DNA from: Callorhinchus milii
Taxonomy: Eukaryota
Assembly: GCF_018977255.1 (NCBI RefSeq)
Contig: NW_024704743.1
Span: forward strand, 15,130,001-15,194,000
DNA length: 64,000 nt
Reading direction: 5' to 3'
The number at the start of each line of letters is the position of its first letter. Positions within the stretch are counted from its first letter, which is position 1. Made by a program: the position numbers and the translations under genes. Shown in pieces: positions 2,824 to 35,337 of the stretch. The notes below the pieces were generated by a model. It saw only the letters and a list, made by a program, of their open reading frames with translations. It was not told the origin of the DNA and did no database searches.

Positions 2824-4296
2824 GTAAGTACTCACTCTCTTTTAATAATTTGTGAGCATTTCTTTAGGTCAAACAAGAAGGAGGTCGTATTTATTTCCAG
2901 TGTACACTGTAATACAAATTTGCATAGTGCCTTTCACATCGGTAGGACGTCCCAAGACACTTCATAATCGTGGCTTGGCACCTGAGATGGGCGTGGGAGC
3001 TGAAGAGGGCACAGAGGGAAAAGATGACATTATATAAAATACAATGCAGTGAAGATCTATTTGACATGTCAAGACAAACCTCTGTTTAATACCACTAAAG
3101 ATGTGTTTTTTGTTGGACGTTATTTTTGATGTATGTCACTAAGAGGATCCTTTATATTAACTGCTTCAATTTAAACCATTCTTTGTGTTAGAGGAAGTGA
3201 GTCAACTATATTGATAAATAATATAAATTTGCATGAGATTAAGATGATCATTACAACATTTTCTATTTCATGTTTATGCCAGATAAATGATGCATGAAAC
3301 TGATATTTCAGAGAAGTATTGTCTTTCATATGGCAGTTAAAATTATAGAACAGTGACCTATTCAATAGAAATCAATTTTTCAGTTTGCTTCATTACTAAG
3401 CAGCTCAAAAGGACTTAACCCAAGATCATGTTTCTTTAGATGGTTGATGTTTCACTGGGGAAAAAAAATTCTATCCAAAATCTAGTGTAAATGCTATACA
3501 TGATAGATGTTGATTGATTTAAAAGAAAAAATTGCTTACACCGGTTATAAATCCTACATGTACAATGAACAATGGAGCATCAGTCAAGCACTGCTCCCAA
3601 TGCTATGCTTAATGAGGGCACACTCAGTGTTAAACTGGCTCATATGGTGATGGCATTTGATAGTGAGTGTTAATGAAAATCCAAAAGCATTCTGTCAGAT
3701 GTTTCTGAAGATGCAAACCTCTCATTAAGAGATAATTAATCATTAAGTCACAAGCTATTTCCACGTCTCGAAGAATGTGGCAATATTTGTCCAAGTCCCA
3801 TACCACTATGGTGACAAATCAGAAATGGGGCTAATACAGTCATGATACAAATGATATTGCAAAATTCATGGGGTGAACTTGATGATATTTGCATAGCTGC
3901 AGCAGACATAAAGAGCAGGCAATTAGAATTTAAAAATGTTGAGGTTGAATATCTTAAAATGAGATTTTATGAAGATAAAATCTGAGGACATGCATCTCCT
4001 AACTGATGGAAGGTCAACATGGAGAAGTGGATGTGAAGGACACATCTGTACATTTGAGGCACTCCTGAGATTTCAAATGTGTAAGATACCTGGAGCATGA
4101 AGTGATTCAGTTGAGGCTGACAAGTATTAAATAAGAGTTGGAAGTTTAGAAAAATTCTAAAGTGGCCTTGCCTTTATCTAAGTCTGTACATCTACTATTG
4201 TCTGTGTATTGGTGTATGTGTATGTATGTGTGTGTGTGTATATACACATATATATATAGTCCATATCAGAGTCGAACTTTACTTGCTTAGATTGAT

Positions 4297-4790
4297 CAGA
4301 ACAACCTCTCCCTTTCCTCTGGTACTGTTGCCTCCCCATTAAAAACCGCTGTCATTGCTCCTATCCTTAAAAAACCCTCCCTGGACCCTTCTCTACTCCC
4401 TAAATACCACCCCATCTCCAATCTCCCCTTCCTCTCCAAGGTCCTGGAAGGAATTGTTGCTTTTCAGCTTCGCACCTTCCTCTCCTGCCGCTCCCTTCTC
4501 AAACCTCTCCAATCGGGCTTTCATGTCGCCCACAGCACAGAAACAGCCCTGGTCAAAGTGTCAAATAACATTCTGTCCATCTGCGACCAGGGCTTCCTCT
4601 GCCTCCTCGTCTTCCTTGACCTTTCTGCTGCTTTCGACACTGTTGACCACTCTATCCTTATCCACCGCCTCTCCTCTCACCTCAACCTCCACGGTGCTGT
4701 CCTTGATTGGTTCAGATCGTACCTTTCACACCGCCTGCACTTCATCTCCTCAAACAGTTTCTCCTCTAGCTCCTACCTCTCCGACTTCCT
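4297..4790 (+). mobile_element. L2 LINE reverse-transcriptase fragment
   Basis: PISNLPFLSKVLE, QSGF, LVFLDLSAAFDTVDH RT motifs. Confidence 0.85.
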
Positions 4791-4889
4791 AACTGGGTGG
4801 CCTTTTTTTGGGAGTAGTGGGGTGGTCTGGGTGAAGGCGGGACACCAGCGAGATTACAGGAGCTTTCGGGGCCCAGCACTGCACACTGA

Positions 4890-5168
4890 CAAGAGCGAGA
4901 GACGCACACACACTCAGAGACACAAAGAGACACACACACTTACAGACACAGAGAGAGAGTGACAGAGTGAGGCACACAAACACAAAGAGTGACATACGCT
5001 CAGAGACACAGAGAAATACATTCTCAGAGAGACACACACTCACACAGACACTCACAAACACAGAGAGGGAGACGCAGACCTGCGCACGCAGACACTCACA
5101 AATGCATATAGAGAGACATACACACAGACAGTCATACACTCTCTCTCTCTCTCACACACATACACACA
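4890..5168. repeat. Compound (CA)n/(GA)n low-complexity microsatellite
   Basis: Direct inspection. Confidence 0.9.
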
Positions 5169-5319
5169 GTGACGTCAGGTAAACAGCCGTGAGACCTGCC
5201 GGCCAGAAACTACATTTATAGTGTGCTTGTAGTTGAGGAAGGTGTCTGTAGTGGATTCCGCAGGAAAGGTGCAGCTAGACTTTTCTATTGGCCCAGGTTA
5301 TAGCCCCTTCGGAGGTGAT

Positions 5320-5630
5320 TCGCCCTTCAGATGAGATGTTAAACCGAGGCCTCAGCTGCTTGTTCAAGTGGATATTAAAGATCCCAGGGCACTAGTTGAA
5401 AAAAGAAGGGAGTTTCTCCTGGTGTCCTGGCCAATAATCCCCCTATAAAAAAATTGGTCATTCACTTCATGTCTGTTTGTAGGACATTGCTGTGTGCAAA
5501 TAGGCTGGCTACTGTGTTCACTGACGAAATGCACAATCACTACACTTTACCAAAGCTCTTCACAGAATTTACTGTATATTCTCCAGAAGTGAAATGGGCT
5601 TTGCTAAATGTAAGGATTATTATTATTGAT
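5320..5630 (+). mobile_element. Deu-domain SINE; similar copies at ~18985-19385 (+), ~34147-34425 (-), ~51435-51755 (-), ~62843-63240 (-), ~63265-63478 (+)
   Basis: Deu core cagatgagatgttaaaccgaggc...gtggatattaaagatcccagggcact...ggtgtcctggccaata, followed by an L2-type tail and (TTA)n. Confidence 0.7.
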
Positions 5631-6809
5631 TATAATTTGCAGTTACAGCAAGAAGCTATTGCAGAATTGCTAATATATCAAACATTACTCACACTTCCAT
5701 GAGAGGAAGACTAATTGGAAAAGCAGCAACATCTTCCATAATATAGCTGTTTATTATGATTCAGCTGTTCCTGAATTTGCTGAATATACACAGATGCCTT
5801 GCTCCCATTCACTCCTTTAAAACGTTGAGCAGTGGATCTACGCTGAGGACCTATGATTAATGCAGAGCAAGGTAGCAAGAACTTGATATTTGTGGTGTAA
5901 CACTTAGAGGCCACAAAACAGATTGTTACTTTAGCATGCAAGGACTCTAACCAACTTCATCTGTTACTGTAAAATTTCTAGCAATGCAAACTACTGTCTA
6001 ACACCTAAACCAGTAACTGCAGTAACTATGTCTGCATCCAGCAGCCTGGTATGGAGTGTCACTGTTCCACCTACCTCTTTAATGCTGGCAGATATCAACA
6101 CAATGCAACCTGCACTGCAGTGTAGTTCGGTGAAATAATTTATCTGCAAAACTGAGCAAAACACCGTCACGGTGGACTATGATAGCATAAATAGCTATTT
6201 TAGTTGTAAAGGTATCCACAATAATTTGTGTAAGTTTCATCTGTATGATGTTGCACAGAAGAACATGTAAGTGTCATTAATTGTTTAGGTAGACTTGTAT
6301 CACTCCTTTCACTCAAAACAGTGTATAATTTACCATGTACTGCAATTGTAGCTTATCTTTTGAGCTCACGTTTTATATTTCTTTTTAACAATTGCGCTGA
6401 TGTTGTATACTGCTGAAGTGCTTTGCTTTACCTTTTATTATATGCCTATAATAAAGTGGTATGCATTTTACATTTTCACTATTTTAATGATCATATTGAT
6501 GTTGTGTGTGTGTGTATATATATATGTATGCTTATTGCAGTGAAAGATTTAATTATACATAAAACTGCCATTAATAGTAGAAGTAAGTACAGTTTGTAGC
6601 TTGTAGATATGTAATTGAACAAAACGTAAGTAATCAAAGAACATTTTTATACACACTTTTATAAATGACTTATATTTAAATTAATACAATAATTATTCAT
6701 TTCAATGTCCTGCAGCATCCTCCATACAGTCAAACTTATTTAGAACTGGTTGTAAAGACCCTTCTGTTCTGTTGAAAATATGGTAACAGATATAATTGCA
6801 TTTTCACAG

Positions 6810-6907
6810 GTAAGGGATACAGCCATGAATACCATGGTGGAGATTTATCGTCATGTAGGCGAGAAAGTACGATCTGACCTCAGCAAAAAGGGGATTCCTC
6901 AAGCGCG
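6810..6907 (+). CDS. CLASP2: CLASP2 internal coding exon, VRDTAMNTMVEIYRHVGEKVRSDLSKKGIPQA(R)
   Basis: ttttcacag acceptor, CG|gtaagt donor; 98 nt, phase 0 to 2; conserved VEIYRHVGEKVR. Confidence 0.95.
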
Positions 6908-6944
6908 GTAAGTCACTTTAAGCATTTACATCACAAAGATTTAC

Positions 6945-7205
6945 AAAAAATGTACAGCATGGCAACAGGCCACTTGGCCGAAACAGTCCGTGCCGATGTT
7001 TATACTCCACATGAGTCTTCACCCTTTCCTTTACTTCCTTCCCATGTCCTTCTATTTCTCCACTCCCTCCTGTGAACCAGTTGTAATGAACCCCAACCAG
7101 TAGAAACAGCCTATTTACAGTAAGCTTATCAAACTGTTTTATAATTTTAAACTCTTCTGTTAAGTTCTCCCTTAAACATTTCTTCTCTAGCGAAAAAAGA
7201 CCCAC
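6945..7205 (-). mobile_element. CR1 LINE 3' fragment
   Basis: GLFSLEKKCLRENLTEEFKII on the minus strand; 3' UTR shared with the copy at 40740-40800. Confidence 0.65.
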
Positions 7206-8255
7206 AGAAGCACTCTGGGACGTCCTCCCGAAGTGAAAGGTGCTATACAAATGTAGTTTGTTGTTGATATCGGTAAGCTGCCAGCCACAGTATCATCAAC
7301 AACATATATTTGTATCGCGCCTTTCACATCAGGAGGACGTGCCAAGGCGCTGGACAGTCAGGGATCCACACCTGAGCTGATGATTGGGATCAGGAGGGGT
7401 AGAAGGCGGAGAGGGTAGGTAAGTAGGAGGGTGACCGAAGCATGGTCGAAGAGGGGGGTCTTGAAGGCAAGGGAGGAGGCGAGGCGGAGAGACTGTGGGA
7501 TGAAATTCCAGAGGGTGGGGGCAGAGCGGCTGCCCTCAAAAAAAATAATAATTTGGGTTACTCCATTACTGTTTGTGGACACTGCTGTGTGCAATTGGCT
7601 GCCGCGTTTTGCCCACAAATATACAGTCAATTCACTTTACAGTATATTGTGTGAAGCGCTTTGAGACGTCTAGAAGTTTGAACAGTGCTATATCAAAATG
7701 CAAGGTTTGTTATTATGTGTATTTTATACTATGTATTGTAATCCTGGGTAATTAAACTTCACGACAGCAAAAGTTTAGTCACTCATTTAATGCTGATTCT
7801 TGTTCATTGGAAGAACTTGTATGTCATCACTGTTTTATCGAGGAACTCAAACGTTTAACCTATGTTTAAGAGAAATAAATCAACCTACATCTATTTTACA
7901 GTAGGAAGTAGGCTGGCTGGTTGCCATATAAATGTTAAACAGATTTATGTTTGCTTAACCATCAGTTACAGAGATAGGAAGGAGCAAGGTTGTTGAGGGC
8001 TTTGAAGGTGAGGACCGGGATCTTGAACTGTATCCTCTGAGTGATGGAGACCCAGTGGAACCGGGCAAGGATGGGAGTAATAGGGTTGCAGAGCCTGGTG
8101 CGGGAGAGGACACGGGTTGTGGAGTTCTGGATGATCTACAGCCTGTGGAGGGAGGAGTTGGGGTGGCTGCCAAGCAGGAAGTTTACGTAGTCGAGCCTGG
8201 ATGTGACGAATGAGTGGATGAGGGTCTCGGTGGCCTGGGGTGAGAGATAGTGGTG
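7205..8255. mobile_element. Cluster: L2 tail (+, 7205-7266), L2 3' end (-, 7293-7536), SINE tail (+, 7540-7715), L2 fragment (-, 7972-8255)
   Basis: SAPTLWNFIPQSLRLA and [15 protein letters not shown]2 ORF2 C-terminal motifs; shared 3' stem-loop tails. Confidence 0.75.
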
Positions 8256-8979
8256 TTTTTTTTCAGAATTTCCAGTCTTTTTTCTAAGGTACTTTGTTTG
8301 ATATGACATCATGTGGTTGTTCTCCTTTTTGAAAACCAGGAACAAAAATACATAATCTCACTTTCTGGCTGTTTTTTAAAAAAAAGGTTCACTACTTATA
8401 GTTCCTTGAATCAGAGTAAAATCACTCTATAAATACTAGTCTTCAATACTGAGGCTCTCCAGTAGGCTTTCTTCCCCAACATTCGTTTTCAGATTGGGTT
8501 TGATTGCTACATCAGAGCCTTCTCGGGAGAAGCTGTGAATTGGAAAATTGCTTGCTAAAAGGGTAAAAATCATCCTGATTGATCATCATGATTCAGGGCC
8601 TAATTGTTGGTATTCAATGTTCTGCTAAAGGCATTTTGTGAGGTTCTGTCCAGGTGCAGTACTGCATTTAGCCAGTGGAAGCCCTCAGTTAGCTCCAGAA
8701 GTGGTACAGCTTTTTGTGAAGAAAATTAATCAGCGGTACAATTTCACAAGCTTCAAAAGTTATACCAGCTTTCTGCCACTTCTACAATAAAATAACTGGT
8801 CCTGGACATAAGATTTGTGGAACTTTTTCACCCTCAGAGTTGGCCAATTCTGACAGATTCCAGATACTTAGCTATATGCAGTAGCAGATCCGGAAGTCAA
8901 ATTATCCATCTCTACATACGTTACACCAGGAAAATTGAGGACAGATGAGTGGAAGAAAACCATCCTCACAGCTGTGTAC

Positions 8980-9557
8980 AAAAATAGAAGTCGCTGAGAA
9001 CACTCAGCATGAGTCACCATTTCGGGTCCACGACCCTTAAGTCAGAACTGGGGCATGTTGGGAGGGAGAGGCTTTTAAGGGCTAACAGAGAGGGGGGAGG
9101 CAGGGCAAGGAAGACAAAGGAGAAAATGGGGTAGAGAACAGGGGATGATGGGTTAAAGAGGTATTAATAATGCAAAACAAAGTGTGGGGGGGGTTGCAAC
9201 AAAATAGGCAGACCAGAGAGAAAAGGTATTTCTGGAACCAAGATGATGTGATAATGGTCGCAGAAGAGGGGAAGGGGAAAGGTAAGCTGTTACGGTCTGC
9301 AATTGTTGAAATCAATATTGAGGGCTGTAAGGACCTTAGCAGATAAATGAGGTGCTGTTCCTCGAGCTTGCACTGTGGCTCATTGGAACAGCGTAGGAAA
9401 CCGTGGATGGAGAGGTCAGAGTGCGAGTGGGAGGGAGAGTTGAAATGGCAAGAAACCGGAAGTTCGGCGTTGTGCTTGCGGACAGAACGGAGGTGTTCAG
9501 CAAAATTGGTCACCTGATCTGCATTTTGTCTCCCCAGTGTAGAGGAGATCACATTGT
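8980..9557 (-). mobile_element. Penelope-like element 3' fragment (GIY-YIG C-terminus + terminal region)
   Basis: FAEHLRSVRKHNAELPVSCHFNS...KLEEQHLIYLLRSLQP; highly similar to 60045-60662 in the opposite orientation. Confidence 0.8.
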
Positions 9558-9878
9558 GGAGTCCTGTAGCTCAGTGGTTAGAGCACTCGCTTTGCAAGCG
9601 AGAGACCTGAGTTCATTTCCAGGCAGGTCAGGGCGAAACCTTGGGCAAGTTTCCTTACTCCACACGCCTAATAATAATCCCTCCAAAAACAAAACAATAA
9701 TAAATTGGTCATTTTTAATCTACGACTGTTTGTGGGACATTGCTGTGCGCAATTGGCTGCCGCGTTCGCCCACAAATATACAGTCAATTCACTTTACAGT
9801 GTGTTCTGTGAAGCGCTTTCGGACGTCCTTCCGACATGAAAAGCGCTATATCAAATGCAAGGATTATTATTATTATTA
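9558..9878 (+). mobile_element. Full-length tRNA(Ala-like)-derived SINE, short subfamily; other copies at 32255-32580 (-), 33832-34146 (+), 10865-11118 (+, 5'-truncated)
   Basis: A box tagctcagtggttagagc, anticodon arm ctcgc-tttgcaa-gcgag (TGC), B-box-like gttca, Deu-like 3' core, L2-derived tail and (TTA)n. Confidence 0.9.
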
Positions 9879-10864
9879 ACCTCCCCCTCCATATACACTC
9901 TGCCACCCACATTCATGACCACCCACTCCACCTGGTGATTACCCGGGGCCTCAGTGTCGCAGACCTCACAATCACCGATAAAGCTATCTCAGATCACCAT
10001 TTCATCTGCCTTAACTCCTCAATCCATCTCCAATCTCGCTTTCCTTTCCAAGGTCCTTGAAAGAGTTGTTGCTTCCCAGCTTCATTCCTTTCACTCCTGT
10101 CACTCCCTTTACAACCCCTTCCAATCGGGTTTCGGTGCTGCCCACAGTATGGAAACAGCCCCAGTCAAGGTAACAAATGACATTCTGTCCATCTGTGACC
10201 AGGGCTCCCTCTGTCTCCTTGTCCCCCTCAACCTCTCTGCTGCTTTTGACACTGGATCACTCTATCCTCCACCGCTTCTCTCACCTCAACCTTCAAGGTT
10301 CTGACCTTGAACGGTTCATATCCTATATCTTACATCGTCTCCACTTTGTCTCCACAAGTGGCTTCTCCTCCAGGCCGCGCACCATCTTGTGCTGTGTTCC
10401 TCAGGGCTCTGTCCTCGGTCCTCTCCTTTTCGACCTGTACGTGCTCCCTCTTGGTGCCATCATCTGCAGACATGGGGTCAACTTCCACATGTACGCGGAT
10501 GAAACCCAACTCTATCTCTCTGCCTCCATATTTAACTCCTGACAGAATATCTGTCAGACATCAAGTCCTGGATGAGAGCCAATGTTCTACAGTTGAACGT
10601 CAGCAAGATCGAGGCTCTCCTGATTGGCTCTCCAGCGCCTCTGCACCTCAGGCAGTGGCAGGCTCCAAGGATGCACGCTCCAGCTTGCCAAGCCAGTCAG
10701 GAACGTGGGTGTCTTCTTCAACCCTCAAATGTCCTTTCTCCCCCATATCCGTGCCACGACCCGCTCTGCCTTCCCCTACCTTTGCAACATTGCCCGACTT
10801 CGCCACTGCCTTACCCCTCAGGGCACCGAAACCCTCATACATGCCTTCATTACAACCAGGCTAT
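9879..10864 (+). mobile_element. Internally deleted L2 LINE (endonuclease remnant fused to RT)
   Basis: THIHDHPLHLVIT..ISDH endonuclease motifs, then [25 protein letters not shown] and [10 protein letters not shown]. Confidence 0.85.
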
Positions 10865-11427
10865 GCCAGGCAGGGCGACACCTTGGGAAAGTTTCCTTAC
10901 TCCACACGATTAATATTAATCCCTCCAAAACAAAACAATAATAAATTGGTCATTTTCAATCCACGACTGTTTGTTGGACATTGCTGTGCGCAATTGGCTG
11001 CCGCGATTCGCCCACAAATATACGGTCAATTCACTTTACAGTCTATTCTGTGAAGCATTTTGAGACGTCAAGAAGACGTGAAAAGAGCTATATCAAATGC
11101 AAGGATTATTATTATTATAACTTCATCCCCAATATACAAGTGATTTACTATCTTAACAAAATGATAACAAAATCCTGTTGTGTTTGGGATAGATGATGTG
11201 CTATGAAAAGATTGAAATAAACAAAGGGAATATATGGTAGGAACAGAATATGTAAAGGAAGAATCCAAAAGGTTGTAAGAAATATCGAGAATGCAAAAAG
11301 AAAAAATAAACCAATGAAGCTAAATAATCTTGACCATATTGTTCCACCGCAAGTAACAAAATTGCAAATTGAAGTGCGACTTGTTAACTGAATTTAATGG
11401 TGATTACATTTCCTACTTTATAGGCTG

Positions 11428-11925
11428 AATAATAATAATCAGTGCATTTGATATAGCGCCTTTTCGAGTCCTTGAAACATCTCAAAGCGCTTCACAGAAT
11501 ATACTGTAAAGTGAATTGACTGTATATTTTGTGGGCGAAATGCGGAAATCAATTGCTCACAGCAGTGTCCCACAAACAATCGTAGATTGAATAATAACAA
11601 CCCTTGCATTTGATATAGCGCCTTATCATGTCATTGATGTTTCAAAGCACTTTGCAGAATATACTGTAAAGTGAATTGACTGCACATTTTGTGGGCGAAA
11701 CACAGCAGCCAATTGCACGCCGCAGTATCCCAAAACAGTGGATTGAATGACCAAAACTATTTATTTATTTTAAGGGCTTATTACCCCAGAAAGCGATCCA
11801 CCAATCGACTAACAACTGGGTTCCTACTTACTGCTAGGTGAACAGAGGCGTGTGGAGTAAGGAAACTTTCCAAAGGTTTCGCCCTGCCTGGGAATCAAAC
11901 CCAGGTGCTCTCGCTTACAACCACT
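11428..11925 (-). mobile_element. Two tandem SINE copies (tail only 11428-11590; long subfamily 11590-11925); other long-subfamily copies at 26085-26418 (-), 44460-44799 (-), 52603-52958 (+), 63885-64000 (+, partial)
   Basis: Same head and tail as the 9558 SINE plus a ~60-nt internal segment (cctagcagtaagtaggaacc...gatcgc). Confidence 0.85.
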
Positions 11926-13099
11926 ACTTTTGAGCAAGATAGCAGGGCGAGTTATATCTCTTGTATTTTTCCAGTGCCATACTCAAAGTGTTTCACAGGT
12001 AATTTTAGTCAAGCGTAGTGACTGTATTTATAGGCAATATAGCAGAACAATCCCACAAACAGCCCCCACCGTTAACCAGTGAGATAGCATGGTTGCAGAG
12101 ACTGAAATATCACTGAAATACAGCAACAAAGTTTTCAACCAATTCATTTTTGGCCACCATTTAAGGAACAATTTCTATGCTGCCTTTGTTTTGAACTTGT
12201 ATGACTGAAATACATTGGTTGGAATATTATGTATTTTCTTGGTAATCTGTCAGTTAAACTTTAAGAATGCAGTGATCATGTTGAAGATTTAGGAATTTGA
12301 AATAGATGTGATCCCGTATAAGCAATACTGAGGAACCTGGCAGGTATGATGTATCATGGCACAAAATTAAATAACAATTCCCATGTAAAAGTGATTATTT
12401 TAGGGCTGTAATTTCATCTCTGGATTCAGATTGATAGGAAAGAAAGAACTTTCTATTTCAGCAAATATGATAATTGAAAACCGTTTTTAAATGTTTGGCA
12501 AGGATTTATGCAGAATTTTCTTTTTCTCGTTGAAAATCACTTTGAGCAGATAAAATCTGGGCATATGTGTGCAGGGAACACTTGTGTATGCACACTATTG
12601 AATTCACATTGAGAGAAATAAGATCACATATAAAACTAAGTTTATACTACCCTATGTCATCCAATCTGGTGTCGTCCTATGCATTCATACCTTGGTCCAT
12701 ATGTTGAACATGTGGGTGTTTTTTTAAAATGTATTTTTTAGTATGTCAAAATGCTCTATTTAAAGTTCCTGTGGTGACAAATTTCTACTACATTTTTGGT
12801 GGCAAATTAGAAGAATTTGGGCAAGTTTAATTGAGCATTATAAGGCTTTTCACGAATCACACTTGTAGTTTAATGTCACCTAAGAAAACCTTCAATAAGA
12901 TTACTTTTGTAATCATTGCTGTGTATTTATTGATCTGTACAAAACATTGCATAATGAATTTTTTTTTGTTGTTGTTTCTAAACCAAATAGTTATCCAATA
13001 ATTTCATATTTATACCCTGGATTACATACTATATAATAAGTGACATACAAATCAGCCAGTCATATTACTGATGGGTTTGGCAGTTTAGTCATATGATTA

Positions 13100-14670
13100 C
13101 AACAATAACAAAATTTCATTTGTAAAGCGCCTTTAACGTCGGAAAGACGTCCCAAGGGGCTGAACAGTCAAGGATCAGGAGCCGAGTCTTGGGGGCCAGG
13201 GTTGGGATGAGAGAGGGTAGAGTGCGGAGGAAGGCACGGTCGAAAGGGAGGGTCTTGAGTCGTGCCTTGAAGGAGGCAAGAGAGGGAGCAAGGTGAAGGG
13301 ATTTGGGGATGGAGTTCCAAAGTGTGGGGGCAGAGAGGCTGAAAGCCTGGCCTTCTATGGTAGGTGGGTCGGGTGGAAGACATGGAACAGACCAGAGCCT
13401 GCTGAACGGAGGGAGCAGACAGGTTGATTGGGGTTAGCAGGTCAGAGAGATAGGAAGGGGCAAGGTCATGGAGGGCCTTGAAAGTGAGGACAAAGATTGT
13501 GAATTCTATCCTCTGAGGGATGGGGAGCCAGTGGAGCCGGGCGAGGGTGGGGGTGATGGGGTCACAGAGCCCAGTGTGGGAGAGGACACCAGCTGCAAAG
13601 TTCTGGATGATCTGCAGCTTGTGGAGGGAGGAGTTGGGGAGGCCGACAAGGAGGGAGTGTCCTTAGTCACGCCTTGAGGTGACGAATGCATGTATGATGG
13701 TTTTGGTGGCCTGACGGGTGAGGCAGTGGCGGAATCAGGCAATGTTGTGGAGGTGAGGGAATGCAAGAGCGGGTCATTGCACGAATAAGAGGAAGATAGG
13801 ACTGTTGAGGGTCAACATGACACCTAGGTTCCTGACTGGCTTGGCGAGGTGGAGTGTGCAACTGTAGATGCTGATGCTGCCAGTGCCTGAGGTGCGGAGG
13901 CAATCAGGAGGGTCTTGGTCTTGCTGACATTCAGCTGTAGAAAGTTGGCTCTCATCCAGGACTTGATGTCTGACAGATAGTCTGTCAAGACGTCAGTTGT
14001 CCTGGAATCGAGGGTGGAGGCAGAGAGAGAGAGTTGGGTGTCATTCGCGTACATGTGGAAGTTGACCTCATGTCGGCAGATGATATCACCAAGGGCGAGC
14101 AGGTAGAGAACTTGACCAGAGAAGTTTCCATGCGGTGAGCAGCACCAAAACCCGATTGGAGGGGCTTATGAAGATAGTGGTAGGAGAAGAAGGAGCGAAG
14201 CTGGGAAGCAATGACTCTTTGGAAAGAAAAGGTAGGTTGGAGATGGTAGTTAGAAAATAGAGGTGTGTCCAGGGAAAGTTTTTTCAGGATGGGCCTGATT
14301 ATAGCCATTTTTAAGAGGATGGGAATGGTGCCAGATGATAGGGAGAGATTGATGGTGTCGGAGAGTAGAGTGGCGAGGAAATGGAGCTAGGAGGTAAGGA
14401 GAGGGGTGGGTATGGGGTCAAGGAGCAGGTGAGATGAGAGAAGAGGGGGAGACAGGTTCAAAAATATGGAGGGAGTGATGGGTAGGGGTCAGAGTGTGGG
14501 GAGAGATGGGGAGGGAGTGGCAGTTAGAAGGACGAAATCCAGCATCTCCTCACAGTCAGAGTTTGACGAGAAAATGGTTGAGGCGTGGGAGGGTGGACGG
14601 AGGAGCCGGTTGGTGGTGGAGAATAGGAGCCTGGGGTTGTCCTTCGCCTTCAAGATTATCTAGAATGCGT
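13100..14670 (-). mobile_element. L2 LINE, 3' ~1.5 kb with internal deletions
   Basis: HMYANDTQL, IKSWMRANFLQLNVSKT, LHWLP motifs; 3' stem-loop and (TTG) tail at ~13100. Confidence 0.88.
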
Positions 14671-15674
14671 TATGAAAACGAAGCAAGTCAACCTGAGTCA
14701 AGAAATAAAACTCACTGCCTAGTGAATAATAGCAAGGAACCTTGATTCTCAGCAAGGCAAGTCCAACAGTGATGGATTAAGTCCTGGAGTCTTGATTTAG
14801 TCAAATGCCTTACAGCCCGGAGAGGTTGCTGAGGAGATGTTATGTGATACTGCTCATCATCTCCTCTGGGTGCCTCCTCAAGCACCCTCGACCTTCACCT
14901 CAAATGCCAAGTGGAAAGAGGTCCTGAACTTCGTCTCGAAGTTGACAACATCCTCTTGGTTGCCTCCTCTTCCTCCCCCATGATTCCCAGCAACGTCAGC
15001 CCTTGTGCTTTCTACATCATCCACTCTTTCTACCACAGCTCCGACCATTGCCATTGCCCATGCACTCTTTCACCCCCATTTCTCCGTCCTCCCTCTCAAC
15101 CATCGTTACCTATATGAAGCCCGCCATCTGCTAAGTTATTTGATGGTATTTAATTAGCACTGATAGTATCAGTGGCATCTGATTAGCACTGGTGCCAAAC
15201 AGATTTTCTTGTCAGTCTAACCTCTTTTGAAATCTGGAGGAGTGAAAAGAAAGATCTTTACGGTTTTCCCTTCTTTCATTTTCTTCTGTACCCCATCTGT
15301 GTCTTTCTTGTATTCATGCTTTTCATTGGGTTTTGAAATCAACATGGAATGTAACTGTTTCATCAGCCCCCAGACCCCAGGTTTTAACAACATATTACTA
15401 ATCAATTAAGCTGCAGTGTAAGTGTATATGGCATCTTATCCCATCTTCACCTATAATACAGAAACATCTCACTATGTTTCACTGTTCCGGATCTATGAAC
15501 CCAAATAACGGGTGAAAATGGGGCTGACATAATGTCACTTCTTGTATACTGTGTATTTTTAAGAAGTGCAGCTCATGCAATTTCCTGAAAAATGGATTCC
15601 GAGGGTGTAATTTGTTGCGCATGCACATGTGCTAGCTTTCAAATTGCCACTGGTGTCACTATGTGCGCTGTGTT

Positions 15675-16712
15675 CAAGCTGCAGAACATCCAGAACTCTG
15701 TAGCTCGTGTCCTCTCCCACACCAGGCCCCGTAACCTCATCACACCCACACTCACCCAGCACCACCATGTCCCCATCTCGCAGAGGATCGAGTTAAAAAT
15801 TCTCATTCTCACTTTCAAGGCCCTCCATGGCCTTGTCCCCTCCTATCTCTCCGATCTGCTAATCCCTTATCAACTTGAGCGCTCCCTCCACACAACAGGC
15901 TCCGTCCGAACTGCTCCATGTCCCCCGCCCGACCCGTCCCACCATCAGCGGTTGGGCCTTCAGCCTCTCTGCCCCCACCCTATGGAACTCCATCCTACAT
16001 TCCCTTTGCCTTGATCTGACGGAAGTCGGCTATTTTTTATTTGCAGGAAGCCAACCTGCCAATGCGCCAACACCACACAGTGACTACCTTGTATGATATC
16101 CACCCTTAGGGGATATTTTATTTCATTTTGATCCGTTTCTAGAGTCAGGATACTCTTCAATATATTAAAATAACCTTTTAGCCGTATCAGTTGCTCAGTG
16201 ATCTAAACCCTCTTTTTAGCTACCTCTGAGTTATTGCATACATAACAGATAACAGTTCATTGTAATTGAGTCTTTGCAAACTTACTTGAATACCTACTCA
16301 GAAAATATAAAATAAGCAGATATTTGCTATATTTTGTCCTTTCACTATACCTATTTACTGCTTTGTAATATAGCCTTAAAAACAACAAAATCTTTTGTAG
16401 AGCTCCTTTCACGTTAAGGACGTCCCAAGGCGCGGGACAGTCAGGGGTCAAGACCTGAGCATGGGGAGGGGTGGGGTAGGGGTGAGGGAAGGCAGAGAAA
16501 TGGGAGGGCGACTGAAGACACGATCAAAGAGGAGGGTCTTGAAACCAGCCTTGAAGGAGGCAAGGGAGAAAGAGAGGCGAAGGGACTGTGGGATGGAGTT
16601 TCAGAGTGTGGGGGCAGAGAGGCTGAAAGCCTGGCTTCCGATGGTAGGGCGGTTCGGGGGGAGACATGGAGCGGCCGGAGCCCCCTGAATGGAGTAAGCG
16701 GGCAGGTTGGTA
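15675..16712. mobile_element. Two L2 3' fragments in inverted orientation (15675-16012 +; 16380-16712 -)
   Basis: LQNIQNSVARVL, RIELKILILTFKALHGL and SAPTLWNS motifs. Confidence 0.85.
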
Positions 16713-17190
16713 GAAAGGAAACTCAATTGGGTTCTTTCTGTTCACCGTATTTTGGAAAGGTATGGCCTTTCCTAATCCCAACTCTAATTTAAAGTAGAAA
16801 ATTTCCATTGCAATAGAAAAATAAAAATATTTTCTTATCAAACAATACATATTAAATGTTTGCCCCAATAAAAGGGAATACATACAAGTACAAAGAACAC
16901 TATGTTGTAGTGAACTGCAAGCAGCAAGTTCCCATTTGTTTTTTTTAGAATGAAAGCTGTCTCCACATTTTCACATGTACAAATCAGAAATGTATTACAC
17001 ATATAATATCACATTTTTTTGCTTTGTACGTCTCTGAAAGTGGAGTGTGACTTAATTGGCCAAACGTTAACTAAACCACTGCCAATTGTGTTAACGTATT
17101 CTGTCTTCAATGGAGCTCCTATTAATTAATAATATTAGAATCTGGTTTGCTTTGCATATGAACTAAAGTGAATTAAAATTTTGCTTTTAG

Positions 17191-17261
17191 ATTACAGACA
17201 TTATTTGCAAGATTTGATGAAGTGCACAGGTCTGGAAACATGATATTGAGTTTCAGCCTTG
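17191..17261 (+). CDS. CLASP2: CLASP2 internal coding exon, (R)LQTLFARFDEVHRSGNMILSFSL
   Basis: ttgcttttag acceptor, G|gtaagt donor; 71 nt, phase 2 to 1; FxxFDEV and SGxMILS motifs. Confidence 0.93.
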
Positions 17262-18222
17262 GTAAGTATATAACAGTAGCTGGTACTGTATTTACTTTTG
17301 GTTTGCTGTAGTAATTTATCAGATTCTGTTATCCAAGATCAATACAATGAGTGCTGTGTCTTACAAAATATCTTATACGCAGTTGTCTTTTGCATTGTAC
17401 TGGCTCTGAGGAAACATGCTTCGCAAAGCCAGGCAGTAATCCAAGGCTCCTGCAAATGAGCTCTTATTGTTTAAGTAGATAGGTAATTGCTTTCCAGATA
17501 AGCATGATAAAATGTAACCAATGCTTGATTACGTTTCATATTTGTTATCTGAAATAGTGCATTATTTATGTGAATTTCTAAACCATATCACAGGACTTTA
17601 ACTCTTAGATTGTTGATATTTTGATAAATTACGCTATTAAAATTAGGTGGTGTTATGGGTGCTGATTTAAGAAAAACCTATTAATGGACTGTAGAAACAA
17701 AATAAAGAGCTGTTTTTGTTTTCTCCTTATTGTTACGATGTGGAATGCCCTACCTAGAATCGCGTTTGAGGTATAATTCATATTAGTCTTTAAGGAGGAA
17801 TCAGATAAATATCTGGAAAGGAGAAACTAAGAAGGGCATAGAAAAAGGCTAGAATAAATGGATAGTTCTTTTTGAGACCCAGTGCAGATACAATGGGCCT
17901 TTTGTCCTTTTTCTGTATTATACATTTCTATTGTATCTTTGATTGTCGATGTGCGTTGGGACATGAGCTCTGTTAATCTGTTCATAATTTTTTTAAACTT
18001 TGGAAATGTTTTTCTTCTGTAACATTGACTTGCAACTGTTGGGAAAATCAGAAGGAATATTTATATTTGGTTAAAATAATTCATTAATGCTACTGTACTG
18101 ATTTGAAATAGCTACCTGTGGTAAAATTGATTGAAATCATGACAATAATTGATTCTGTACAAATATCTATTCTTGTTGACTTTTAACTTATGAATAAGAC
18201 AAGTCACAAGGGCCTGATGGCA

Positions 18223-18906
18223 TTGAGGTCAAAATAGATTATTGGGATACAGCAAAGAGGTTTCTGAAACTATGCTATTTGTTAACCTTTCAAAAAATGG
18301 GTAACATGATCTACATAATATTCTGGTAGGCTTGCGGAAATGTATTGCATTCATAGATTCTCCACGAAAGAGAGGCTTCTGAACCAATCATTAATCCTTT
18401 TTGAGATCCCTGCACTCCAATGCTATTAGTTCCTCCTATGTATGTTTATCTAATGAATGTGATGTCTTGTGTTTCCGATTTGAAGCCTTGGTCACTCAGG
18501 GGCTTCATTAGCCTTGTATCATTTTGTGCAAACACATCAGGCCAAGTCTCTTTATTATCATTTCAACCAGCAATGTGATACTTCCTTTGCTGCTGGAATT
18601 GATTCACTGATGACTTTACAAGCAATTATATTGTAGCCTTGGAATCTGGATCAGACTGGTAAAGAATTCCTAGTGGAGACCGCCCACAATTTAGCACTGA
18701 ATCAGAAATCTCAGCGAGGATTAAAGAATGGCTTGTGTGGGACGTTAGAAAATGTTAACAAGCTTGTGCATTAAATCTCTTCTGAATTTGAGGTTAAAGT
18801 AGATTATTAGGACACAGTAAAGAGGTTTCTGTAAATATGCTGTTTGTTAACCTTTCAAAAAATGGGTTACATGGTCTACGTAATATTCTGGCAGGCTTGA
18901 GGAAAT
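18223..18906 (+). repeat. ~119-bp local direct duplication (18223-18341 and 18788-18906)
   Basis: Ungapped alignment, e.g. tttgttaacctttcaaaaaatggg in both copies; 565-bp spacing. Confidence 0.9.
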
Positions 18907-19449
18907 AAGAGGTCGCTCAATCAGAGCTAGCTTTTGTGCATTGCATGCAAAATAGTTCAGTAATGGCAATGTTTGGTTGCCAAACTATCTTGGCTCAATT
19001 GATAGCACTCTTGCCTGTTGGCCAGAATGTTGTGGATTCAAGTCCTGAGTTTGATTTGAGCGCCTCATTTATAGATGCTTAAATCCAATACATGGGAGAG
19101 CTTTACATTGTTGGAGGTGCTGTCCTTTGTATGAAAATTTGAACTGAGAACCATTTCGTAACTCGGATGGATATCAAATTCTATGGCACTGTTTGAGAAA
19201 ATACAACTGAGTTTCTCCCCCTAGCCTGGTCAGATATCCTCTAGATGAGTGATTCATCTAATGTCTGTTCAACATTTTGCTGGTGGAAATAGCTGCATTT
19301 GCAGAAGAAAACAGTTACTATATTTTACAAGTCCTTGTTAAAGACTTTGAAATTTTTGGAAGTAATAGGTGCTATAAAATGCACATTTTTTTCTGTCTTT
19401 TTCTCTTGTATAGGGGAGGGGAAAGTCGTAGGAACAAAATGTTTGATTT

Positions 19450-19910
19450 AACAACAACTACTACAATTTACATTTGTATAGCGTCCTTCACATCGGGAGG
19501 ATGTCCCAAAGCACTGGACAGTCGAGGATGTGCACCTGAGCTGGGGTTTAGGATCAGGAGGGGTGGGGTCAGGAGGGTTGGGGGTAAGAGGGGGACCAAA
19601 GGCGCGGTTGAAGAAGAATGTCTTGAGATGGGCCTTGGAAGAGACAAAGCAGGGGGCGAGACATAGGGACTGTGGGTTGGAGTTCCAGAGGGTGAGGGCA
19701 GAAAGGCTGAAGGTCCGACCACCGATTGTGGGGGTGGGCAGGCGGTGTGGTGCAGGCCAGAGTCTCCCAAGTGGAGTGAGTGGACAAGCTGGTATGGGGT
19801 TAACGGGTCACAGAGATAAGGAAGAGCAAGGCCGTGGAGGGTTTTGAAAGCAAGGCCTAGGATTTTGAACTCGATCCTCTGGGGGATGTGGAGCCGAGCG
19901 AGAGTGGTGG
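19450..19910 (-). mobile_element. L2 LINE 3' fragment
   Basis: Homologous to the other L2 3' ends; tail at ~19450-19520. Confidence 0.8.
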
Positions 19911-20179
19911 TGATTTAAACCTAGAGTGATAGAAAATTTTGATTATGTAAATCCCTGGGCAAGTACACTGCTTTATAACTAACATTACTGTATAGTACAT
20001 GGAATACAATCCAAAATATGCTTCTGGTTTAATTGCAAATGCTGCACAGGATATTGTCTCAGATGTCCACCTCTAAAGATGTAATGGTGTAAGAGGGCTT
20101 ATGGTTTACATAGGATATTCTAGGCCTGATTTGGTTTTAAAAAAAATAGAATAACCTAGTTATGTTACTAATTCAACCA

Positions 20180-21074
20180 GAATTTTCCGTGACTCCTCTC
20201 TCCCGCCCCCCTTGTTTGCTGTGGGCTGATTTGCATTCATTTGGTCTCATTGATTTCTCTGTTCTTGTTCAGCTGTCATAGTTGATGAAGCTCGAAAGCT
20301 GGATTGCTTTGTGATTTCCTCCACAAAAGGCACATTGCACATTCATTGCACCTGCGCAGCTCGGCGACTTGTGTCGCTGTCTCCAGTGGATCCAATCTGT
20401 GTAAAATGTTGCGTAGCTTCCTCAGCACTGAAGCCTTGGATTGTTTTTGATATGTTGTTTACACAGCTTAATCAGATACAGCTTTTTTAAAAATAAAGCA
20501 GGGGCTGTTCAGAAAAAAATATGTGTTTGTACACAGCTGTGGACATTACAAATCTAGGTTAAAATTTTAAATAAACTCTTAATATGCAGATAAACTGTAA
20601 TCTTGTAGCCATGTGACTTTTCTGATTACGTGGAGCATCTGTGGGGAATACAGATTACTGAACATGTGTCTTGTGTTGTGGTGGTTGCCTTAAGAGTCTC
20701 TCTGTCGGAATCTTGTCATCTATGAATAGAAATAGGAAGAGTTCTGTATATCGTGTGAAACCAGTTTATCAGAAATCTGGAAAATCATTGTTTAGCACTG
20801 CCAAATCGGGTATCTGGAGCAGCCTCGACATTTCTATTAAAGGCAGTGAGAGATTCTTACACAAAACCCTGTGAGCAGAGGGACTTTTATTCTGAACTTT
20901 TCTAACAGCTGTTGGCTATTGCAGTGTGGAACTGCAGATCTGACTAGGTCACAGCATTTTGCTTATCTCCCTCTTGGTGCACTGGAGATAGCAGCACAAG
21001 CTGCAGTTACAGTACTCAATTGGTTCAGCATCTGATGTGACATTTCTTTCACAAATTCAAGCTTTTTCAGGAAT
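20180..21074 (+). promoter_or_regulatory. Putative internal promoter/5' UTR region of the gamma-like isoform
   Basis: No recognisable TE directly upstream of the MAMDD exon; GC box (ctcccgcccccc ~20200) and octamer ATTTGCAT (~20229). The TSS cannot be determined from sequence. Confidence 0.45.
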
Positions 21075-21587
21075 ATGGCCATGGATGATGGTGAGTAGCA
21101 ACAAAAAAAATCTTTCTTTAATGTTCAAGACAGTAATATTCAAGGATAGCTGCTCTGTACTCTGCTCCTTTTTTGTGTAGAGCTATTGTACATAGTGGGG
21201 AAAGGGGAAGAAGAAAGAGTGATTGTTATGGTTTCTTTTGTAGCCAGATTATGTTCACTATAGACAGAAATCTAATCTGTAACAGCTCTAAGTGTTATTG
21301 AGTTTTCCTTTTGTTTACTGATTCAGATGGCTGTTTTGACAATGGAACGCAATGTTTTTTTTCAAAATGTTCTCAGGCAGGATTTTATATTTTGAAAAGT
21401 TACTAGCTTGGTTTGCTTTATTCAAATTCAGTTGGTACAGAGGCTGGTCTTGTGTTGTGGTGGTTTCCTTAAGAGTCTCTCTGTCACAATCATGTCATCA
21501 AGGAATAGAAATAAGAAGTGTTCTGTATGTCGTATGAAACCGTTTATTAGAAATTTGGAAAATCTTTGTCTACCACTGCCAAATCGG
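20668..21587 (+). repeat. ~140-bp direct duplication (20668-20809 and 21447-21587) flanking the gamma-like exon
   Basis: gtcttgtgttgtggtggtt.ccttaagagtctctctgtc...cactgccaaatcgg in both copies. Confidence 0.9.
21075..21090 (+). CDS. CLASP2: Alternative start exon, coding part MAMDD(D); CLASP2-gamma-like N-terminus
   Basis: gaatATGGCCATGGATGATG|gtgagt: strong Kozak contexts and a phase-1 donor. Joining to 47337 gives MAMDDDKSFDDEESVDG; recalled mammalian CLASP2-gamma begins MAMGDDKSFDDEESVDG. Confidence 0.85.
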
Positions 21588-22694
21588 ACATGTTTAGCGA
21601 GTAAAAACAGAAGTAATAGTTTTCACAGAATTCTGAGATTTTAAAAAAAAATCTCCTGGTCATTAATTGGCTTAGTTGCTTTCTCAAGATCTATTTGAGG
21701 AATCCCTTTATCTCTAAAATCTCAAAGTCAAAACATTGGGTATTTGAAATCTAAATCTATAAAAATTGTATGAGAAAAGTTCTGTCTTGCTATTTTGGGG
21801 AATGTTGCCAAACTATAATTGCAACCCTCATAGATGAATCTTTTAAATAAATGTAGTTTGTTACATTATATTTAGTTTCACACGGTTCATTTTTTATCCT
21901 TTTAGTTATTGCTGTTTTTTGCAATTAATGCTCTACATCGTTCCTAGATTTTGTTCTAAATGTTGAAGTCCACACATAGTGAAAGAAAACAAGCCTAGTT
22001 TTGTGTTACAGCTTCCTATGTTTTTCTACCTTTGAATTTATGGGTCTGTTCTTATTTCTGGCTACTGTTCCCTTGAGTGGACTGCCCTGTTAGTAGAAAC
22101 TCATCATTCATTTGTGTCATCAAGAAAAGCAGTGCTTCACACAAGGTCAGCTGATAAATGTAGAAGCTTTGTGAATTGATGTCAGGAATGATTTGCAGCA
22201 CAGGATTGTACTGTATTGGTGTAATTTAATTGCAGAGTACTATATCAATATAAAACCCAGATGCCAGCTCGTCTAAGCTTAAAAGAACTTGAGAAACTAC
22301 GTTGAATGCGGGCTTCTTAGCGTCTGCTTGCTGGATCATTTTGTATGTATACTAGAGACTTCCAATTACACCCAATTTGTGAGCCAAATTTATTTTACAA
22401 AAAAACATTGTTGTAACACGGTTGGTTGGATCCAGTGTCTCACTGACTGAGTTATAAGAGATGTGGGGGGAAAATGGCCGACTTCTGAGTTGCCAGGGTG
22501 CTGCTGACATAACTTCCTGCATGTGGTGCACGGGAAGTGATGTTAGCGTACCTTGTGCATATGCACGCAACACACCGGTTACTGGAGATGATCCAGAAAT
22601 TGGTCATTATTAAGCATGGGAAGCAGGCTAGTCAGTGCCGGAAGCCAGGTATACAGCGCTTCAGGTTAACACGGGTTCACAGATGATCCATGTT

Positions 22695-26300: not shown

Positions 26301-26414
26301 CGAATCAACTAGCAACCAGGCTCCTACTTACTGCTAGGTAAGTAGAGGCGCGTGAAGTATGGAAACCTACCCAACGTTTCGCCCTGCCCGGGAATCGAAC
26401 ATGGATCCTCTCAC

Positions 26415-26463
26415 TTGCTTCTTGGCCTTTTGGCTAAGATCGAGTGTAGTATCTGTTTGTATC
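26415..26463 (+). pseudogene. 3'-truncated U2 snRNA fragment (about nt 2-50)
   Basis: ttgcttcttggccttttggctaagatcgagtgtagtatctgtttgtatc versus U2 ATCGCTTCTCGGCCTTTTGGCTAAGATCAAGTGTAGTATCTGTTCTTATC; includes the GTAGTA branch-point recognition sequence; two differences are CpG decay. Confidence 0.9.
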
Positions 26464-26819
26464 CATTACTCCTTGGGGATGTGCCTGCCAGAAAGATCTC
26501 CTATTCAGATTCGCTTGCGTTTACATGTCCACTACTGAATCTTTCCACAATGATTTATAGCAGGATTGAGCTCCTGGCAGGAGCTATGTCTTTGGCCTGC
26601 TGTTGGCTTGTCTGGCCAGAGAGGTAATCCAGTCATCTGACTTGCTCGGGTTGTTGTGAAAACAAGTATCGGGTCCGCACCGTTCTTTGACAAGAGAGTT
26701 TGGGGAAGAATGTGGTTGTCTGTGGGACTACCCTCATTCATTTGAGAAATGTGTTTCGGTCTAATTTGGCTTACAATGGATGAGAGGCACCTAACCTTAA
26801 CCATCAAAAAAAACATGAT

Positions 26820-31748: not shown

Positions 31749-33492
31749 CACTGGTTCTCAAAACAAATATTTTTAGTGGCCTCAGTGTGCGGCCCCCGAC
31801 ACTTAATGGTAGCCACAGTGCGAGTTTTTCCTAAAAATACTTAATCATAAGAAAAATAAAACAGTAACCTGTAGACTGGACAGGTTGCAGCTTTATATAG
31901 CACATATGCACATCTCAAATGTTTTTTCTTTCTGTAATTTGACAAGCCACACTTGAGAAAACAGTTTTTTCATGTACCCTTTTTCGACATATGGAAGACA
32001 TGTAAGAAGTTGGCTGACTCGATCTGCATAACAAAGGCCAACGAGACCAGTGAGATTCGCTTCAATTCTGTACTGCACCTTTCCTTACCATCAATCTTAA
32101 GCTTTCAATCAAACGTGCAGCACTTCAGATGATATTAGTCGATGTGAATGAGGGACCAGAGTTGTCTGTACAGTTGTAATCGGCTCAGTGGTTAAGAGTC
32201 ATTATGTTAACCAACTTGCAGTTGCTTTGCATGACCAGCACTGTATTTAAACTAAATAATAATAATAATAATAATCCTTGCATTTGATATAGCGCATTTC
32301 ACGTCGGGAAGACGTCCCAAAGCGCTTCACAGAACACACTGTGAAGTGAATTGACTGTATATTTGTGGGCAAACGCGGCAGCCAAATGCGCACAGCAATA
32401 TCCCACAAACAGTCATAGATTGAAAATGACCAATTTATTATTGTTTTTTGGGGGTTTTGGAGGGATTATTATTAGGCGTGTGGAGTAAGAAAACTTGCCC
32501 AAGGTTTCGCCCTGCCTGGAATTGAACTCGGGTCTCTCGCTTGCAAAGCGAGTGCACTAACCACTGAACTACAGGACTCCACAAAGCTGGCCAATAGCAG
32601 CTGCACATCTCACGAGGCATTGGAAACTTAGAGAAAAAGAACATCTTACTGACGGGAAGGATTTTTTAAAAATTCCAGAAATCCTTCACCATATCTTGTC
32701 CTCACCCCCAACCCTTGGTTCCCAAATCCAGCTTCTCTTCTCCCCATTATCATGTCAATTTACCTCAGTAGCAACGGAAATCCCAGTTTAAATGCAGTAA
32801 TGTTTTTCAAATCTATAAATGGAAATAACCAGGACTTTAAATTCTGCAATTTGCAGCATTCTGGCAATACTGGCATTTTTTTTAAAACAATACAAACATT
32901 AACCAAGAACGATGCATTTCTTCCCCTCCACTTCTCCAAAAACTTCTCCTGCTCTCCCATCACTCCACCCACCTCTCTCTAGTAGACCACCATGGATCTC
33001 TCTCCTCGACCCTGATACATTTGCATAGCACCTTTCATGTTGGGAGGATGTCCCAAGATGTTGGACAGTCAGGGATTTGGACCCAAGCTGGGGGTTGGAT
33101 CAGTAGTGAGGGTAGGGGTAGGAGGGTGACCGAAGGTGTGATTGAAGAAGAGGGTCTTGATATGTGCCTTGAAATACGTAAGGGAGGGAGCAAAATGAAG
33201 GGAGTGTGGGATTGAGTTCCAAAGGGTGGGGGCAAAGGGGCTGAAAGCCCGATTGCCGATGGTGGGGCTGACCGTTGACGACAACAAAAACTTTAAAATA
33301 TATATATATATACATGCACCAAATAGAGCAATGAACAAGGCTTAAAAACACACACGCACAGAAACTTGGTCTTCAAAGTTTTCTCTCACTCAAACTCAGC
33401 TTGGCTGACAGACTGGAAGCGAGCACCAAACTTTCCGGGGGGCTGCTGTGGCCCCACAAAATCATGTGGATGGTAGCATTTGAGAACTGCTG
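31749..33492 (-). mobile_element. Putative hAT-Charlie-type DNA transposon fossil with nested SINE (32255-32580) and L2 (33017-33275)
   Basis: Imperfect TIRs cactggttctcaaa / tttgagaactgctg; minus-strand YMKKLFSQVWLVK resembles the hAT C-terminal dimerisation motif. No clear 8-bp TSD. Confidence 0.45.
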
Positions 33493-35337
33493 ACAAAACC
33501 CCAGGAAGTCTATTTGCACTCTTTGTGGCTTTGGCTACCTGTGCTGCAACTTTTAGAGTCCGTCAATCTGGAGCCCCAGATTCCTTTGCAGTTGTTCTCC
33601 CTTTTAGGTTCCTATTATCCAATGTATTTGGCTTCTTTATTCATCTTGCCAACATAGGAACATACGAATAAAAGTAGGCTAGTCAGCCCCTCGAGTGTGT
33701 CCCACCATTCTCCAAGACCATGACTGATCCGCAACTCAATTCCACCTCACTACCCTCTCTCCATATCCCCGATACCTCTGTCCATCAAGCATTTAAATAA
33801 TATATTCCTTGCATTTTGCAAGGCATTTTGTGGAGTCCTGTAGCTCAGTGGTTAGAGCACTCGCTTTGCAAGCGAGTCACCTGGGTTCAATTCCAGGCAG
33901 GGCAAAACCTTGGGCAAGTTTCCTCACTCCACACGCCTAATAATAATCCCTCCAAAACAAAACAATAATAATAAATTGGTCATTTTCAATCTACGACTGT
34001 TTGTGGGACATTGCTGTGCTCAATTGGCTGCCGCATTCACCCACAAATAAACAGTCAATTCACTTTACAGTGTGTTCTGTGAAGCGCTTTGGGACGTCCT
34101 CCGATGTGAAAAGCGCTATATCAAATGCAAGGATTATTATTATTATTTTATATAGCGTTTTTCATGTCATTGAGATGTCTCAACGTGCTTAACAGTATAT
34201 ACTGTAAAGTGGAGTAACTGTGTGTATTTTGCGGGTGAAACACGGCTGGCAGTTTGCGCACAGCAGTGTTCCATAACCAGCCATGGCGTGAGTGACCAAT
34301 TTTATTGGCCAGGACAACAGGAGAAATTCCCTACTCTTTTTGAATAGTGCCTTGGGGTCTTTAACATCCACCTCAACAGGTAAACGGGACCTTGGTTTAA
34401 CGTCTCATCCAAAGTACGGCACTACTAAAAATTAGGCAGTTCTGTCATTATCTAGAGTGGCATGATTTTATTATCAGATAAGAGTCCTTGGCTCTCCTTT
34501 TGACTCAGTAAGTAAATGAGTTGTTGGGTCTTGAACTAAATACATGATTGGAAGGTCACAGCTTCAATTCCTGGCCTGCACTGAGTTACCTGATCTCATA
34601 TTGAATGTCACTAAGGTTCCTTCAATTTGACTCTGCATCTTCAAGGAAGGGTTTCCAGTCCTAATTGCTGTTCAGTGGAGCCTTTTGAAAAGTGCACGTG
34701 TGGATTTCTGGTTAGGACAGGATTGGGCCTGTCTATGATGCATGTCATAATAAAATGGCCTGCTCTCTTACTTTATATTTTGAGATACCTCAGGGCTTGG
34801 GTGAGAGGCTGCAGAGCTTTTAGTGCCCATGAAATCCTATCCTATCAAAGGTCATTGCCTTGAGCAGAGAAAATTGAGAGGGAAAAGACAAATCGTCTCT
34901 GTTCTTAGGGGCACATAAATATCGGCATATTGTTTGGTGGCTGCGCTTTAGGAGAACACCGGGGCAGTGGTGCAGAGCAGTTGCCTTGGTGTCATTATTT
35001 GTGCATAAATAAAAAGGGCAGCAGTGAAGAGATAATCACCTCACTGGATATGGAACCTGAGAGAAGCTGGATGAACAGCTTTGTGACCTGATGTAAGCTG
35101 AAGCCAACCTCAGCATTTAATGTATGCAGCAGAGCACAGCTTTGCTTTATGAGGCAGAAATTCTATTCGTGTGGGGAATGTCTAATTTTCAGGTTTCGCA
35201 GCTGAGAAAGCAGCGCAATAAAAGTAAGATTTTAGCTCCGTTTTTTTGCAAATATATTTTGGAACTATAATATATGGTGACATTAAATTATCTAGTTTTA
35301 TTTCAACAAAGCTTGCACAATTTTTTAGATTATGGAA

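Follow-up and report, generated by a model that had tools for sequence, protein, structure and literature searches.

A probable CLASP2-gamma start exon in the CLASP2 gene of the chimaera Callorhinchus milii

The CLASP2 isoforms go back to Akhmanova et al. 2001, which PMC6373834 and PMC6035287 cite. According to PMC6035287, the C-terminal CLIP-binding domain of mammalian CLASP2-gamma holds the protein in an auto-inhibited state, which partners such as CLIP-170 relieve; alpha, in contrast, is constitutively active. For CLASP1, alpha is the only isoform described in PMC6373834. The alpha and gamma isoforms of CLASP2 differ in length by 233 residues according to PMC4054870. In mammalian alpha, 238 residues precede the shared Asp, compared with 5 in the start MAMGD; the difference equals these 233 residues, and MAMGD is therefore the gamma start. 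The human gamma start MAMGDDKSFDD, which the preliminary description of this locus had given, is indeed what the NCBI Homo sapiens record P0136 contains.

Gamma-type starts before DKSFDD were found in seven of 313 fetched proteins. These are human P0136 (MAMGD-DKSFDD), mouse isoform h (P0137, MAMGD), isoform X29 of CLASP2 from the catshark Scyliorhinus canicula (P0090, an NCBI predicted model, MAMGD-DKSFDD), the snake Micrurus (P0135, MAVGD), the birds Turdus (P0138, MMAVGD) and Callipepla (P0127, MMAIGD), and P0139, which carries no name. Conservation of the gamma start is thus implicit in public annotation, because the RefSeq catshark model already carries it. No paper on the evolution or age of the CLASP2 start exons was found in the literature searched, which consisted mainly of open-access papers.

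Here, we analyzed a 64,000-nucleotide stretch of the C. milii genome (contig NW_024704743.1, positions 15,130,001 to 15,194,000, forward strand), referred to as the window. Six of its exons, all with AG/GT ends (the three TOG1 exons, the last alpha-specific exon, the common exon, and the exon that follows it; Table 1), join into about 183 residues that are found in the C. milii alpha-type model P0003. Over 46 residues, the common exon, which begins at 47337, shows 100% identity to three C. milii entries named CLIP-associating protein 2 (P0001–P0003), and its identity to shark and ray CLASP2 is 72 to 83% (best 120 of 141 matches). The remaining sequence is intron with many LINE- and SINE-like repeats, judging from the list of open reading frames.

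Table 1. Features of the CLASP2 gene in the window (position 1 is the first nucleotide of the window).
Feature	Position	Strand	Basis
Three TOG1 (alpha) exons, with introns	1137–1228, 2748–2823, 6810–6907 (span 1137–6907)	+	tblastn and joined translation compared with P0003
Last alpha-specific (TOG1-side) exon	17191–17261	+	Matches C. milii alpha-type model P0003
Presumed gamma promoter and 5' UTR (putative limits)	20200–21074	+	Motif scan, ATG list, acceptor check
Gamma start exon, coding end	21075–21090	+	Sequence; best MAMGD match among intronic GT sites
Gamma donor GTGAGT, phase 1	21091–21096	+	Sequence; U1 pairing score
Beta start exon, coding part (MRRLICKRICA plus T)	46903–46936	+	Identical to starts of C. 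milii X14 and X15
Candidate fourth start	47145–47178	+	Match to catshark X28 start; donor at 47179
Common exon, convergence point of all starts; linker before TOG2; 141 nt, phase 1-1	47337–47477	+	Identity to C. milii CLASP2
Next exon after the common exon; beginning of TOG2	62682–62752	+	Joined translation

The gamma coding piece lies 3,814 nt downstream of the last alpha exon. It consists of 16 nt, namely five codons (MAMDD) and a single G of a split Asp codon, and is followed by the donor ATG|GTGAGT in phase 1; the acceptor AAAG|AT at 47337 lies beyond an intron of 26,246 nt. When 21090 is joined to 47337, the junction reads MAMDDDKSFDDEESVDG (MAMDD-DKSFDD), and the frame stays open through both the common exon and the next exon. 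The predicted product keeps the frame and lacks TOG1. The coordinates, the phase-1 donor, the distance of some 26 kb to the acceptor, and the MAMDDDKSFDD frame given in the preliminary description were all reproduced. That description had also pointed to two well-placed Kozak ATGs. Both are present in good context (A at -3 and G at +4 for the ATG at 21075, G at both positions for the in-frame ATG at 21081, where the gcc context is the Ala codon itself), but the second Met is replaced by V or I in the snake and the birds, so the twin feature is not conserved. Pairing of the donor with the 5' end of U1 is beaten at only four of 1672 intronic GT sites, by a crude duplex score under which the annotated beta donor has 116 better-scoring sites; the gamma donor is also one of three G|GTRAGT sites in the intron.

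Short frames running from an ATG to a phase-1 donor are common, 22 being present in the 30,075-nt intron, and it is therefore the cross-species match that carries weight. The pattern MAM(G/D)D followed by G|GT occurs once in this intron and in none of 200 Markov-2 resamples; a looser pattern, MxMxx followed by G|GTRAG, was reached in one of 200. Scored with BLOSUM62 against the pentapeptide of human, mouse, and catshark, the gamma site ranks best of 1670 intronic GT sites, with a score of 19 compared with 9 for the next.

Four of the five residues of the chimaera start are identical to those in human, mouse, and catshark. Position 4 is Asp in the chimaera only and Gly in all seven other gamma starts. 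The Asp4 codon is covered by a contig from sequencing run X2 without any other letter at that place, so that Asp4 is not an assembly error. As in mammalian CLASP2-gamma (P0136 and P0137), the predicted chimaera product has a five-residue MAM-x-D start joined to DKSFDDEESVDG and lacks TOG1, and alpha and beta starts coexist in the same gene; the differences lie in Gly4, which is Asp here, and in the linker after DG. Another close counterpart is catshark X29, a cartilaginous-fish gamma start in a species whose models also show alpha, beta, and KARLMLL starts; this model differs in being already annotated and in having Gly4. Judged by these comparisons, the 21075–21090 piece is orthologous to the start of CLASP2-gamma, and the gamma alternative start looks as old as the jawed vertebrates. 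The preliminary claim of an ancient multistart design holds to that depth, given the records from the catshark, the snake, both birds, mouse, and human, and the alpha/beta/gamma design would go back at least as far as the common ancestor of jawed vertebrates. As the counterpart of a known isoform, the chimaera exon was to be expected and is tidy rather than surprising, a shark model already having the gamma start. The annotation of C. milii may gain an isoform from it.

The alpha donor (TTG|GTAAGT at 17262) and the beta donor (CCT|GTAAGT at 46937) are both in phase 1, and the split codon is completed by AT at 47337 to give Asp after alpha (G+AT) and Tyr after beta (T+AT). Since all upstream donors share phase 1, the frame entered at 47337 is the same whichever of them is used. 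The shared acceptor and the contribution of G (alpha and predicted gamma) or T (beta) by the donors hold at the level of the sequence. The window's beta start is identical to those of the C. milii models X14 and X15 (P0001 and P0002); a beta start is present in six of 17 cartilaginous-fish species among the matches listed (cluster representatives) and occurs as MRRLICKRICD-Y in unnamed CLASP2-type proteins. Like gamma, CLASP2-beta lacks TOG1, begins with a phase-1 start, and uses the same acceptor. It differs in having a separate exon 400 nt from that acceptor, a Tyr codon at the junction, and a start with two cysteines, whereas the gamma start peptide has none. The two-cysteine start of CLASP2-beta serves palmitoylation and Golgi targeting, a role for which no source was found in the literature searched. 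Beta models of Hypanus and Carcharodon reach 12 to 13 residues upstream of MRRLIC; around 46864–46902 in the window, that frame has a stop shortly upstream and no such Met.

Expression-related evidence came from contigs of sequencing runs and from C. milii protein models. Nine of 13 runs contain part of 20150–21120; none is recorded as RNA, and it is our guess that these are RNA runs. Filtered records of four of the 13, placed on 19950–21440, gave five contigs with no joints and no loose ends; run X5 gave nothing. The contig pieces cover about 0.21 (run X1) and 0.16 (run X3) of this stretch, compared with word shares of 0.72 and 0.47, and with records missing, the gaps are uninformative. The placement spans the gamma exon only, the acceptor lying 26 kb outside it. 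The contig of run X2 (20620–21276) passes unspliced through the gamma donor and may represent alpha pre-mRNA, nascent RNA, or DNA. The pieces from runs X1 and X3 begin at 20314 and 20304, both from one study and both contig ends, which cannot mark a start site. Of the three C. milii cluster representatives among the matches listed, one is of alpha type and two are of beta type, none with a gamma start; the cluster of P0003 has 17 members. A gamma start is found in one of 17 cartilaginous-fish species among the matches listed (cluster representatives).

Upstream of the gamma ATG, a motif scan gave a GC box at 20203 and an octamer at 20229, about 850 nt from the gamma piece. Motif and CpG scans of the presumed promoter region revealed no TATA box, no CpG enrichment, and no CpG-island promoter. 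Nine upstream ATGs (20285–21035) would burden a long gamma leader if transcription started far upstream.

The same region contains several repeats. A 21-nt inverted repeat (20368–20388 and 20980–21000) pairs at 20 of 21 positions, two of them G-U, at -33 kcal/mol; in the presumed gamma leader, it would enclose a loop of 591 nt. Its best-helix score of 52 was reached in none of 200 shuffles (maximum 49), and the helix appears in both the minimum free energy and centroid folds of 20300–21090 (z -2.0); it may represent either a structured RNA element or what is left of a transposon. A 142-nt direct repeat, 89% identical between 20668–20809 and 21447–21587, flanks the gamma piece and has no further copy in the window, although 18223–18341 and 18788–18906 form a local pair of a similar kind. 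The 142-nt repeat has no Rfam match. Its folds are no more stable than those of shuffled sequences (z +0.5 to +1.4), and a structured small RNA was rejected on that result. Near the gamma exon, Rfam gave nothing at gathering score, the matches in 20100–21700 being weak, at chance level, and far below it.

We estimate at roughly three in four the probability that the chimaera CLASP2-gamma transcript has a first exon whose coding 3' end is 21075–21090. That it is a gamma exon in use, whether as first exon or micro-exon, is very probable. The analysis establishes the sequence, the frame, the orthology, and the gene identity; we infer the promoter, the first-exon status, and the splicing in the chimaera. 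An intronic promoter, lying no more than about 4 kb past the end of the last TOG1-side exon, would start the gamma transcript, and the first exon would be spliced over 26 kb to the common acceptor, skipping the beta exon. Promoter choice would swap the N terminus and leave the frame untouched. The resulting gamma protein would begin with MAMDD-DKSFDD and, by analogy with its mammalian counterpart, is likely a TOG1-less, partner-activated CLASP2. By this design, two microtubule stabilizers, one constitutively active and one gated by partners, would come from a single gene.

The same gamma protein could also be made if the piece were a 20-nt internal micro-exon (21071–21090) preceded by a noncoding first exon, for example within 20300–20480. 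An acceptor-like ttttcag|G is present at 21071 (AG at 21069–21070), 4 nt before the gamma ATG, this arrangement would splice out the nine upstream ATGs, and the GC box and octamer lie upstream. We consider it unlikely, however, since the pyrimidine tract is unremarkable (172 of 879 intronic YAG sites are as rich), no good donor was found in 20150–21075 (the best being CGG|GTATCT), and the X2 contig is continuous across 21071. Use of the same acceptor-like site in alpha transcripts (17261 to 21071–21090 to 47337) would insert 20 nt, shift the frame, and make the piece a poison cassette that lowers alpha. This is very improbable: it leaves the conservation of the ATG-frame peptide across seven other records unexplained, and the shifted frame meets no stop within the exons of the window. 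A further alternative is that the exon is a homologous relic, unused or decaying, and that short CLASP2 proteins of the chimaera are all of beta type. The three C. milii representatives without a gamma start and the change from Gly4 to Asp would fit such decay, but both ATGs, the frame, and the near-consensus donor are intact, four of five residues are as in human, and such features would hardly have been retained by a dead exon of 16 nt over hundreds of millions of years; we regard this reading as improbable.

The remaining alternatives concern the identity of the gene and of the match. If the gene were CLASP1, a gamma-like start would be older than the CLASP1/CLASP2 split. In favor of CLASP1, 23 of 24 residues of the exon 2748–2823 match human CLASP1, and the whole TOG1 scores 377.7 bits against human CLASP1 (6MQ5, 257 aa) compared with 298.8 bits against CLASP2 (5NR4, 230 aa), a comparison of scores rather than a tree. 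Against it, the tree of TOG2, the domain being taken from the database protein P0003 of which the window encodes residues of about 129 to 311, groups P0003 with shark CLASP2 (98/96) in a larger clade of CLASP2 sequences (81/92), with a separate CLASP1-type clade (99/97); 27 of 31 rows were kept, four having fewer than 200 aligned residues. The linker is KSFDDEESVDG as in human CLASP2, where human CLASP1 has KNFDDEDSVDG, and the NCBI name and the beta exon also point to CLASP2. A chance match is excluded by the resampling and by the ranking of the gamma site among intronic GT sites. We therefore give almost no credence to either possibility. The preliminary assignment to CLASP2 is borne out by the C. 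milii CLASP2 matches, the tree, and the linker type, and on this evidence the window gene is the CLASP2 of the chimaera, despite support below 95 for the CLASP2 clade. Its paralog CLASP1 (human 6MQ5 and 4K92) differs in its KNFDDED linker and its own TOG2 clade, and resembles it in TOG1. With the gene taken as CLASP2, the chimaera TOG1 would be slowly changing, and its greater likeness to human CLASP1 would arise because TOG1 of mammalian CLASP2 changed fast. The TOG1 encoded by the exons in 1137–17261 is closer to human CLASP1 TOG1 than to human CLASP2 TOG1, which hints at such rapid change.

Alpha, beta, and gamma hold as starts, but the three starts of the preliminary description may be an undercount. 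A window frame reading TKKARLMLLHQ plus G ends exactly at a phase-1 donor, AGG|GTGGGT at 47179, followed by a 158-nt intron to 47337. The catshark model X28 (P0091) begins MSKARLMLLCQ-DKSFDD, and against this start the 47179 site scores 32, the best of 1668 GT sites, with the next at 17. By the crude score, U1 pairing is stronger at only three of 1672 GT sites. In place of the first Met of the catshark start, the window carries ACG (47145). The second Met is retained as an ATG at 47163; initiation there would yield MLLHQ-DKSF, and initiation at the ACG an 11-residue basic leader. A KARLMLL-type start was present in one of 313 fetched proteins, a single predicted model, and no paper naming an isoform of this type was found in the literature searched. 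We tentatively suggest, as a possibility that we consider less probable than its opposite, that cartilaginous-fish CLASP2 has four rather than three phase-1 starts leading to 47337, the fourth (47179) kept in chimaera and catshark (KARLMLLxQ) and giving an undescribed, TOG1-less, unpalmitoylated isoform. It could arise from its own promoter or from a beta transcript that reads past the beta donor; the conservation could also be noncoding, as the segment lies in the 400-nt beta intron. This possible fourth start is the more valuable question compared with the gamma exon.

Two unnamed proteins of the CLASP1 clade (P0178 and P0188) have nine-residue starts before the linker. They may represent CLASP1 isoforms that lack TOG1, or their gene models may be truncated; if they are true isoforms, removal of TOG1 by an intronic start could predate the CLASP1/CLASP2 duplication.

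Other elements were seen elsewhere in the window. A U2 snRNA match at 26414–26629, just above the Rfam gathering score (47.4 compared with 46 bits), is probably a pseudogene copy. Three Rfam tRNA matches (9560–9631, 32507–32578, and 33834–33905) are probably the heads of tRNA-derived SINEs. Fragments at 59581–60476 and 9082–9570 in the list of open reading frames resemble Penelope-type retroelements.
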